DNA of 64,000 nt from Nitrospirota bacterium. GTDB taxonomy: Bacteria > Nitrospirota > JACRHJ01. The stretch lies in the NCBI GenBank assembly GCA_963698885.1, contig CAVOSJ010000002.1, positions 369,169 through 433,168 of the forward strand. The letters are read 5' to 3'. Shown in pieces: positions 54,768-63,742 of this stretch (positions are counted from its first letter, which is position 1; every line of letters starts with the position of its first letter). A program made the translations under genes and the position numbers. Below the pieces are notes generated by a model. That model saw only the letters and a program-made list of their open reading frames with translations. It had not been told where the DNA came from and ran no database searches.

Positions 54768-54947
54768 ATGAGACCGAAAGAACTCTGGATTTTCCTCTTT
54801 TTCACAGGGACATTGGCCCTTGGCTGGCCGTTTCTTGAGATATTTGCCTCAAAGCTCCCCATCTACCTTTTTACCGCCTGGATCTGCATAATAGCATTAA
54901 TCTATATTGTCGTAAAATACGCGGCAAAAGAGGAAGACGAGGGTTAA
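54768..54947 (+). CDS. DUF4212 small membrane protein (SSS-transporter accessory subunit-like)
   Basis: Start trimmed to MRPKELWIFLFF. Two TM helices. Lies immediately upstream of an SSS-domain protein, as DUF4212 typically does. Confidence 0.55.
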   Translation: MRPKELWIFLFFTGTLALGWPFLEIFASKLPIYLFTAWICIIALIYIVVKYAAKEEDEG

Positions 54948-61765: not shown

Positions 61766-63742
61766 ATGTCCGATAAGGGAATTGAGGCATATCTGGAAGA
61801 AAGCAGGGTATTCCCGCCGAGGGAGAAATTCACCAAGAACGCCCATATCAAAAGCATCGTAGAGTATGAGAAGCTGTACAAGTGGTCCATCGAGGACCCG
61901 GAGGATTTTTGGGCGGAGATGGCCGGGGAGAACCTCGTCTGGTTCAAGAAATGGGACAAGGTCTTAGAATACGACTTCGAGAAGCCGTTTATTAACTGGT
62001 TCAAAGGCGGCAAACTCAACGTCTCCTACAACTGCCTGGACAGATACGTGAACACCCCGTCATACCGCAACAAGGCGGCGCTTATCTGGGAGGCGGACGA
62101 CGGGAGCTACAAGACCTATACCTACCAGCAGCTCTACAGGGAGGTCAACCGGTTCGCGAACGTCCTTAAGAAGAAGGGCGTCCAAAAAGGGGACAGGGTC
62201 TCCATCTACCTCCCGATGATACCGGAGCTTACGATATCGATGCTGGCCTGCGCCAGGATCGGCGCGATACACAGCATCGTATTCGGCGGCTTCTCCGCGA
62301 GCGCGCTGAAGGACAGGATTCAAGATTGTGAATCTTCCCTGCTGATAACAGCCGATGGTGGTTTTAGGGGCGGCAGGCGCGTGCCTTTGAAGGCGGCGGC
62401 TGACGAGGCGCTCAATGAGTGCCCCACCATAAAAAGCGTTATAGTGGTCAACCGGCTGGGCAAGGACGCCAATATGGAGCCGGGCCGGGACAGCTGGTGG
62501 CATGAAGAGATATGCTGCCAGGAAGTGACCAGCTACTGCCCGCCGGAATGGATGGACGCGGAAGACCCGCTTTTCATCCTCTATACCTCAGGCTCCACCG
62601 GAAAGCCGAAGGGCGTGCTGCATACCACCGGCGGCTACCTGCTCTATGCGAACCTGACCTTCCGCTGGATATTCGATTACAAGGAAGAGGACATCCATTT
62701 CTGCACCGCGGACATCGGCTGGGTCACCGGGCACAGCTATATAGTTTACGGCCCCCTTTCAAACGGGGCGACCAGCCTGATGTTCGAAGGCGTGCCGACC
62801 TATCCCGACCCGGGCCGTTTCTGGGAGATCGTGGAGAAGTTCGGGGTAAACATCTTCTATACCGCGCCTACCGCCATACGCGCCCTGATGAAAGAAGGCG
62901 AGAGATGGCCCGGCATATACGACCTGTCCTCGCTTCGGGTCCTGGGCTCGGTCGGGGAGCCGATTAATCCGGAGGCCTGGATGTGGTATCACAGGAACGT
63001 CGGCTCCGAGAAGCTGCCCATAGTGGATACCTGGTGGCAGACCGAAACCGGCGGCATACTCATCACGCCGCTGCCCGGCGCGATGACCTTGAAACCCGGC
63101 TCCGCAAGCAGGCCTTTTCCGGGCGTGGTGCCTAAGATATTCAACGAGAAGGGGGAACCGGCGGCGCCGAACGAAGGCGGCTATCTCGTCATCGAAAAGC
63201 CCTGGCCGGGAATGCTCCGGGGCACCTGGGGCGACCCGGAGAACAAGAGGATAAAAGACGTGTATTTCAGCCGCTTCCCCGGAGTGTATTTCACCGGAGA
63301 CGGGGCCAGGGTGGACGAAGACGGGGACTACTGGCTGATGGGCCGCATAGACGACGTCATCAACGTCTCCGGCCACAGGCTCGGCACGGCGGAGGTGGAG
63401 AGCGCGCTCGTATCCCACGAGGCTGTCGCCGAGGCGGCGGTAGTCGGCTACCCGCATGATATCAAGGGCGAAGGCATCTACGCATATGTGACGCTCAAGG
63501 ACGGCTTCACCCCGTCAAACGACTTGAAGAAGATGCTGATCGGCCACGTCAGGACGGTCATCGGTCCGATAGCCTCCCCGGACAAGCTCCAGTTCGCGCC
63601 CGGCCTCCCGAAAACCAGGAGCGGCAAGATAATGAGGAGGATACTCCGCAAGATTGCCGGCGGCGAACTGGAAAACCTGGGCGACACCTCGACGCTCGCG
63701 GACCCTTCGGTCGTGGATAATCTGGTTGAAAATAAGCTTTAA
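61766..63742 (+). CDS. acs: Acetyl-CoA synthetase (AMP-forming)
   Basis: GGAGG RBS before the second ATG. AMP-binding motifs [16 protein letters not shown]-like, DxxGxxxxxGRxDD and the catalytic Lys region ([11 protein letters not shown]). Confidence 0.9.

Follow-up and report, generated by a model that had tools for sequence, protein, structure and literature searches.

The characterised systems built on SLC5/STAC sensor kinases are CbrA/B, CrbS/R, and RpuS/R (PMC9100948). The cryo-electron microscopy structure of Pseudomonas putida CbrA comprises 13 transmembrane (TM) helices and a four-helix STAC bundle, and CbrX, a peptide of ~58 aa encoded just upstream of cbrA and translationally coupled to it, folds into a hairpin of helices that binds the CbrA SLC5 domain at TM3 and TM8 (PMC13488458). 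Here, a related locus is described on the forward strand of a 64,000-nucleotide stretch of DNA from a Nitrospirota bacterium (positions 369,169 to 433,168 of contig CAVOSJ010000002.1; hereafter, the window), in which genes for a small membrane peptide, an SLC5-STAC sensor kinase, and a sigma-54 activator are followed by satP, a porin gene, and acs. Judged from its sequence, the locus probably encodes a two-component, sigma-54-dependent switch for acetate scavenging.

Relation to described systems, layout, and relatives

The signalling machinery resembles that of CbrX/CbrA/CbrB, in which a coupled hairpin peptide of ~58 aa is encoded directly upstream of a non-hybrid kinase with the order SLC5 (13 TM)-STAC-PAS-DHp-CA, whose partner has REC/AAA+/HTH architecture (PMC13488458). 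The lysine that fills the Na2 site of CbrA (K196) is also conserved in the window kinase. However, the target in the window is a protein-coding acetate operon, whereas CbrB acts on the small RNAs crcZ and crcY; the activator gene overlaps the kinase gene, whereas cbrB has its own promoter; three pocket residues differ (S53, A56, and F248 in CbrA, but T, T, and S in the window); and the host belongs to Nitrospirota, although CbrAB has been regarded as exclusive to Pseudomonadaceae (PMC8871633).

In its targets, the locus is closer to CrbS/CrbR (MxtR/ErdR) of Vibrio and Pseudomonas, where an SLC5-STAC kinase is tied to acs and acetate transporter genes (PMC5436829, PMC5715377). In the window, this tie consists of genomic linkage and conserved cis-elements, and betaproteobacterial relatives of the window kinase, like the Nitrospirota ones, adjoin acs, actP, and genes for a DUF294 protein and an exonuclease. 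Nevertheless, CrbS belongs to the hybrid kinases, having a C-terminal receiver in addition to an S-helix, and CrbR is a LuxR-family regulator with its own DNA motif (PMC5715377, PMC9100948), whereas the window kinase has no receiver and its regulator is a sigma-54 activator with the putative site GTTAC-N5-GTAAC. Thus, two defining features of CrbS/R are missing. The description of the locus as CrbS/CrbR-like in the initial annotation, an earlier reading of this DNA, applies to the type of target but not to the machinery, which combines a PAS kinase of the non-hybrid kind and an NtrC-type activator in the CbrX/CbrA/CbrB architecture. RpuS/RpuR of Sinorhizobium fredii is comparable in that the gene for a monocarboxylate transporter is under the control of an SLC5/STAC kinase, and the transporter has a small membrane protein as its companion (PMC9100948). 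It differs in its LuxR-family regulator, in its substrate, pyruvate, and in its small protein, a DUF3311 member encoded beside mctP.

Two Escherichia coli systems also bear comparison. AtoS/AtoC exerts sigma-54 two-component control of short-chain fatty-acid catabolism and provided the best NCBIfam matches for the cytoplasmic part of the window kinase (245 bits) and for the activator (485 bits). Both scores are far below the respective equivalog cut-offs (646 and 714), AtoS lacks an SLC5-STAC portion, and the Ato targets are atoDAEB and not satP or acs. The acs-yjcH-actP operon, which is driven by sigma-70 with CRP, FNR, and IHF, groups Acs with an acetate permease and a DUF485 protein, as in most Nitrospirota relatives, whereas SatP and a porin take the place of DUF485 and ActP in the window. 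The locus thus couples signalling components of the CbrXAB type to an acetate regulon of the CrbS/R type, and its SatP-porin cassette is specific to this lineage. No literature on a sigma-54-coupled SLC5 kinase controlling acs was found. The CbrX/CbrA/CbrB architecture exists well beyond Pseudomonadaceae, joined to the CrbS/CrbR type of target, and the locus helps to separate the role of the sensor domain from that of the output module.

The region from 54695 to 63770 is organised in two transcription units (Table 1). The peptide, kinase, and response regulator genes form one translationally coupled operon, separated by a 315-nt intergenic region from the second unit, satP-porin-acs. The gene and promoter positions of the initial annotation were borne out, as were its identifications of the channel and synthetase genes. 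SatP matched PF01184 (113 bits) and surpassed the cut-off of NCBIfam NF038013 (AceTr_1; 132.6 bits versus 50), carrying the NPAxxGL-GFG motif NPAVVGLAGFGMTT in agreement with the NPA..GL.GFG.TT signature previously noticed, and its ATG is preceded at 7 nt by AGGAGG. Acs exceeded the cut-offs of TIGR02188 (1005.8 bits versus 725) and NF001208 (1043 bits).

Table 1. Features of the acetate locus (positions within the window)
Feature	Position	Strand	Basis or remark
Predicted sigma-70-like promoter TTGACT-17-TACCAT of the peptide-kinase-activator operon	54695..54723	+	Consensus scan
Degenerate dyad GTTACCATTTTACAC	54716..54730		Overlaps the -10 hexamer; left half-site survives, right half-site with 3 mismatches
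59-aa two-helix membrane peptide, CbrX-like accessory peptide	54768..54947	+	Two hydrophobic segments
SLC5-STAC-PAS-HisKA-HATPase sensor histidine kinase, 976 aa, TTG start	54948..57878	+	Pfam and PDB alignment
NtrC-family sigma-54 enhancer-binding response regulator, 451 aa	57878..59233	+	Pfam and motifs
Predicted upstream activator site 1, GTAACGTTAAGTAAC	59236..59250		Centre at -222 from the -24 GG
Predicted upstream activator site 2, GTTACAATTCGTAAT	59269..59283		Centre at -189 from the -24 GG
Predicted upstream activator site 3, GCTACTTTAAGTAAC	59340..59354		Centre at -118 from the -24 GG
Perfect 17-bp palindrome ATATAACGCCGTTATAT	59445..59461		Abuts the -24 element; unique in the window
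Sigma-54 -24/-12 promoter TGGCAT-N5-TTGCT, TGGCATTCTTGTTGCT	59464..59479	+	Strict match
satP, acetate channel/uptake transporter, GPR1/FUN34/YaaH (AceTr) family	59549..60130	+	Pfam, NCBIfam
OprO/P-type outer-membrane porin, apparent +1 frameshift near 60426-60433	60159..61650	+	Three-frame translation
Hairpin with 15-bp stem in the porin-acs gap	61690..61728	+	RNA folding
acs, AMP-forming acetyl-CoA synthetase	61754..63742	+	NCBIfam

Relatives of the kinase at 59-93% identity number in the hundreds, nearly all of them from Nitrospirota or Thermodesulfovibrionales metagenome-assembled genomes. Eighty-eight loci (here designated by L numbers) were fetched, and a comparison with about 45 related Nitrospirota loci supports the proposed circuit. 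The dominant layout among the 88 comprises peptide, kinase, sigma-54 activator, DUF294 protein (a cNMP/CBS nucleotidyltransferase), RNase_T-type exonuclease, DUF485 protein, ActP, and Acs. In the window and in L085, which is 93% identical, SatP and the porin replace the block from DUF294 to ActP; L087 keeps this block and has a porin gene added before acs, and in L039 (Bacterium HR37), a distant sigma-54-coupled relative, acs directly follows the activator gene. More distant kinases (43-46% identity), from Betaproteobacteria and other phyla, have a different transmitter and likewise adjoin acs, actP, DUF294, and exonuclease genes.

The pairing of DUF294 and RNase_T-type exonuclease genes beside SLC5-STAC kinases, actP, and acs is conserved in Nitrospirota and Betaproteobacteria (e.g., L003 12621-15258, L087 14628-17227, and L066 13115-16658), although the window lineage has lost both genes from this locus. 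A literature search on a role of either protein in acetate use returned nothing, and these recurrent genes are flagged here as unexplained members of the acetate regulon.

Promoter and dyads upstream of the acetate genes

The promoter TGGCATTCTTGTTGCT is the only strict match to TGGCAY-N5-TTGCW in the window, where 0.09 would be expected, and has the GG-N10-GC core of the sigma-54 consensus TGGCAC-N5-TTGCW. It begins 231 nt past the activator stop codon, in accordance with the near-consensus -24/-12 element that had been reported ~230 nt downstream. Such an element, defined by a score of at least 18.5 out of 20.5 within 200 nt upstream of the target operon, precedes 27 of the 28 orthologous target operons, compared with 0.28 expected from the background rate (Poisson P ~1e-43).

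Inverted repeats upstream of the promoter, for which the initial annotation had proposed to look, are present as the three dyads listed in Table 1, all within the 80-250 bp range typical of upstream activator sites. An enumeration of all palindromic 5-mer dyads with gaps of 1-9 nt, covering 230 nt ahead of each of 21 promoters, ranked GTTAC-N5-GTAAC first de novo, with 31 sites distributed over 16 of the 21 sequences. Across the Nitrospirota loci, 41 sites with at most one mismatch were counted in 9.2 kb of target-upstream DNA versus 11 in 834 kb elsewhere, an enrichment of ~340-fold, and several of these 11 fall just outside the limits by which target-upstream DNA was defined. The three dyads of the window are its only sites of this type, and they share one intergenic region with its only strict -24/-12 match. 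Site 1, with one mismatch to the consensus, is nearly conserved in L085, site 2 is identical, and site 3 is kept as GTTACTTTAAGTAGC; indeed, dyads and promoter appear as conserved blocks in the alignment of both sequences.

The distribution of the dyad among relatives is informative as to what it serves. In L001, L009, L012, and L022, where other genes separate the target operon from the activator gene, the dyads stay with the operon, and in L034 they lie before satP-acs, which is located upstream of the kinase operon and adjoins an unrelated activator. Because of these placements, the dyad can be said to track the target operon and not the activator gene. Moreover, dyad and activator co-vary: the helix-turn-helix (HTH) of the activator, LGITRKSLWEKRKRW in the window, is near-invariant (LGITRK[SA]LWEKRK[RK]W) in the orthologues whose dyad is GTTAC-N5-GTAAC, whereas L039 differs in both, having a divergent HTH and another dyad, TGGTAAATTTACCA, that occurs twice (14330-14400) ahead of its -24/-12 element. 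This pattern suggests that the GTTAC-N5-GTAAC dyads are the binding sites of the activator.

Dyads of the GTTAC-N5-GTAAC type are also present upstream of the peptide gene in several close relatives. Perfect copies are found in L001 (7775), L086 (9765), and L088 (2300), and one with a single mismatch in L087 (9805), each as a single dyad 15-56 nt upstream of the small open reading frame, where the -10 hexamer of a sigma-70 promoter would lie, suggesting autoregulation. In the window, the putative promoter of the peptide-kinase-activator operon shows 9 out of 12 consensus matches plus a TG extension, both hexamers being kept in L085, and the overlapping degenerate dyad GTTACCATTTTACAC is possibly a remnant of an autoregulatory activator site. 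In L019, an additional pair of GTTAC-N5-GTAAC dyads, 30 nt apart (22772-22816), lies ~5.6 kb past RNase_T, the last matched gene of the operon, where the fetched locus ends, and may mark another member of the regulon.

Some further elements were considered in this intergenic region. Of the fetched loci, L085 alone has the palindrome ATATAACGCCGTTATAT, in identical form, and the other 87 lack it; a second regulator, specific to this lineage, may bind there. A site for IHF between dyads and promoter was discarded, as the candidate sequence, AATCAAAGATTTC, matches only in part and is poorly kept in L085; so was a hairpin in the 5' untranslated region after the promoter (59494-59518), which folds no better than shuffled sequence (z = -0.18).

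Sensor kinase, accessory peptide, and activator

The initial annotation had recognised a sodium:solute symporter domain of ~13 TM helices fused to PAS, HisKA, and HATPase_c, and the composition of the kinase agrees with this. Pfam searches identified PAS, HisKA (45.7 bits), and HATPase_c (103 bits), together with a weak SSF match (25 bits, just above cut-off), and residues 9-603 align (E = 1e-71) to the cryo-electron microscopy chain 10ed_A, which we take to be the SLC5-STAC part of P. putida CbrA. HATPase_c ends at residue 973 of 976 and no Response_reg match was obtained, indicating a non-hybrid kinase. The stretch aligned with CbrA runs on through the STAC region, with a conserved LRxLRDxxExxLSG motif, and a putative STAC domain is assigned on the basis of this continuity; a search of the PDB by sequence with the STAC segment alone gave no match.

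Of the nine residues lining or adjoining the CbrA pocket, six are identical in the window kinase (Y51, W55, F71, Y75, F406, and K196 in CbrA numbering), and the other three, S53, A56, and F248, correspond to T51, T54, and S250. The latter T/T/S pattern is common to all 26 acs-linked kinases compared, although only T51 is free of ascertainment bias, since the loci were fetched with the peptide patterns WTFYGSVG and SMMAI[ML]FL, which cover the other two positions.

The small protein encoded upstream of the kinase had been assigned to DUF4212, and this assignment was not sustained: Pfam searches at E ≤ 10 with the window protein and 35 relatives returned no DUF4212 match and nothing significant for DUF3311, DUF485, or any other family, two of the 35 relatives having weak DUF3311 matches (E = 0.024). 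Genes for homologues of the peptide are located upstream of SLC5-STAC kinase genes in Nitrospirota, Betaproteobacteria, Methylomirabilota, and other groups; F11, P21, Y33, and W38 are invariant among these homologues. In the window, the TTG start of the kinase directly follows the TAA stop of the peptide gene, and a stop codon with an immediate TTG or GTG start, just downstream of a purine-rich stretch, was observed in 13 of 17 loci inspected, a signature of termination-reinitiation coupling. By analogy of size, topology, and position, the peptide is a putative counterpart of CbrX; searches against PDB chains, including any deposited CbrX chain, with the single sequence and with profiles yielded no match. 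Through the conserved peptide and the stop-start junction, the structural result on CbrX-CbrA, itself very recent, is extended to a much wider family.

The activator contains REC, Sigma54_activat, AAA_lid_14, and HTH_8 domains, as well as the GAFTGA motif and the Walker A sequence GETGTGK. Its ATG shares one base with the stop codon of the kinase gene (TAATG), as stated in the initial annotation, which had reported a 1-nt overlap.

The proposed acetate circuit and competing explanations

Building on the observed gene content and domains, the conservation of promoter and dyads, and the linkage to acetate genes, the following circuit is proposed. A weak sigma-70-type promoter would transcribe the coupled genes for peptide, kinase, and activator. 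The peptide would pack on the 13-helix SLC5 domain of the kinase, as CbrX does on CbrA, and this domain would bind, and perhaps transport, a small carboxylate, most likely acetate. The signal would be relayed via STAC and PAS to the kinase core, leading to phosphorylation of the receiver domain of the activator, which would then assemble on the three dyads 118-222 bp upstream and use ATP to open the TGGCAT-N5-TTGCT promoter. The products, an anion-type outer-membrane porin, the inner-membrane SatP, and acetyl-CoA synthetase, would carry external acetate through both membranes and convert it into acetyl-CoA. The circuit fits the physiology of cultured Thermodesulfovibrio, for which acetate is an obligatory carbon source during growth with H2 or formate (PMC5165239), and offers a concrete regulon (sensor, activator, GTTAC-N5-GTAAC sites, and sigma-54 promoter) for acetate assimilation in uncultured Nitrospirota, namely Thermodesulfovibrionia-type sulfate reducers. 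The prediction of sigma-54/activator-dependent acetate uptake and activation through a transporter-like sensor is strongly supported by the promoter in 27 of 28 operons, the palindrome that tracks the operon, and the kinase-acs linkage across phyla. Altogether, the earlier observation is largely but not wholly confirmed, and its interpretation partly supported.

Several data count against the acetate switch. A search for rpoN or a second activator in the 64-kb window detected neither (no open reading frame with an RpoN box); the proposed promoter would require an rpoN gene elsewhere in the genome. SatP-type channels can conduct acetate both ways. The OprO/P-family porin of the initial annotation, correct as to the family match of the barrel, is not one intact open reading frame. 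A single-sequence model of the STAC segment (pLDDT, the predicted local distance difference test score, of 65) shows approximately four helices, and its Foldseek match to 5a1q, presumably the isolated STAC domain of Af1502 from A. fulgidus of Korycinski et al. (2015), is not significant (E = 5, 28% identity). Weak sigma-70-like matches in the intergenic region, a pocket shared to a large extent with histidine-binding CbrA, and the published status of the CrbS/CbrA signal also belong here, and are considered together with the explanations that they favour.

If the -24/-12 match and the dyads were fortuitous or irrelevant, satP-porin-acs would be transcribed from a sigma-70 promoter independently of the two-component system. 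The weak sigma-70-like hexamers at 59381-59410 and 59463-59490 are compatible with this, as is the E. coli precedent of acs transcription by sigma-70 with CRP, but coincidence on this scale is extremely improbable considering the promoter kept in nearly all orthologous operons, the strongly enriched dyad that tracks them, and the preservation of both elements as blocks in L085. It is also quite improbable that the locus is decaying, with the porin gene as a true pseudogene and the exchange of the ancestral DUF294-exonuclease-DUF485-ActP block for SatP and porin as a mark of lost function. The +1 frameshift in the porin linker points in that direction, together with the hairpin and 103-nt gap before acs, which are absent in L087; however, all other genes of the locus are intact, and in L085, which shares the layout, the porin frame is open. 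Furthermore, a true pseudogene is no more likely than an indel error in the assembly, because a second gene of the window, for a phosphoesterase (37747-39841, forward strand), is split as well, into overlapping open reading frames (37747-38637 and 38507-39841) that match positions 1-148 and 150-356 of Pfam Phosphoesterase.

More weight must be given to the explanation that the circuit is the same but its sensor responds to another monocarboxylate (pyruvate, propionate, or lactate), to histidine, or to an internal signal via PAS, the acetate genes being part of a wider carbon regulon. This is rather unlikely, albeit not negligible: whereas the six identical pocket positions, the control of a pyruvate transporter by RpuS/R, a member of the sensor family (PMC9100948), the description of the CrbS/CbrA signal as unresolved (PMC5715377, PMC13488458), and the additional dyads of L019, which hint at more targets, are in its favour, every linked target set includes acs and an acetate transporter (ActP with DUF485, or SatP), and the T/T/S pattern, retrieval bias at two positions notwithstanding, is found in all acs-linked kinases compared. 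An orthologue of Pseudomonas CbrAB, exerting global carbon-catabolite control via small RNAs and adjacent to acetate genes by chance, would share the domain order of CbrX/CbrA/CbrB (PMC13488458), as this locus does. Such an origin is nevertheless very improbable, given that a Rfam scan of positions 54300-64000 detected chance-level matches only and no RNA family, that in dozens of loci dyads and sigma-54 promoter immediately precede acetate operons that code for proteins, and that the sensor, 43-46% identical to acs-linked kinases of other phyla, matches CbrA more weakly and differs from it at three of nine pocket positions.

Returning to the acetate switch, a broader evolutionary scenario may tentatively be put forward. 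SLC5-STAC sensor, CbrX-like peptide, acs, acetate transporter, DUF294 protein, and exonuclease could constitute an acetate "transceptor" module of ancient origin, shared among phyla, in which the output part has been exchanged, being a hybrid kinase with LuxR-type CrbR in Proteobacteria, and a PAS kinase with a sigma-54 activator in Nitrospirota, Methylomirabilota, and others. In that case, Pseudomonas CbrXAB would have branched from the sigma-54-coupled form and taken on a new purpose, and would not be an invention of Pseudomonadaceae, and T/T/S would mark the carboxylate-sensing branch.

Porin gene, hairpins, and flanking palindrome

The barrel of the porin matches Porin_O_P (37 bits, cut-off 20.9), although only over profile positions 29-130, and Porin_4 (34 bits). 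The signal peptide and a 90-aa N-terminal part (60159 to ~60430) share a frame, whereas the barrel (to 61650) is encoded in the +1 frame; the change of frame falls within a GC-rich Ala/Pro linker. In L085 the frame reads through this linker, and the L087 homologue is intact (508 aa). The N-terminal part contains two copies of a ~19-aa motif, LVEALHSKGVLDDTTYTDI and LVEIMHNKGLIDDATYGKL, before the linker. Both L085 and L087 retain this motif, which matches no Pfam family.

The intergenic region between porin and acs folds at -38.2 kcal/mol (z = -4.45), and its hairpin, which is not followed by a U-tract, is a candidate stabiliser or attenuator; in L087, both genes are only 10 nt apart. A sigma-54 promoter before acs in this gap was rejected, its spacing being off by one. 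Right after the acs stop codon lies a perfect 24-nt palindrome, GTTACCTTTTTGGAAAAAGGTAAC (63746-63769), which contains the activator half-sites at 14-nt spacing. It is followed by three GC-rich hairpins up to position 63955, the last of which (63931-63955) is terminator-like.

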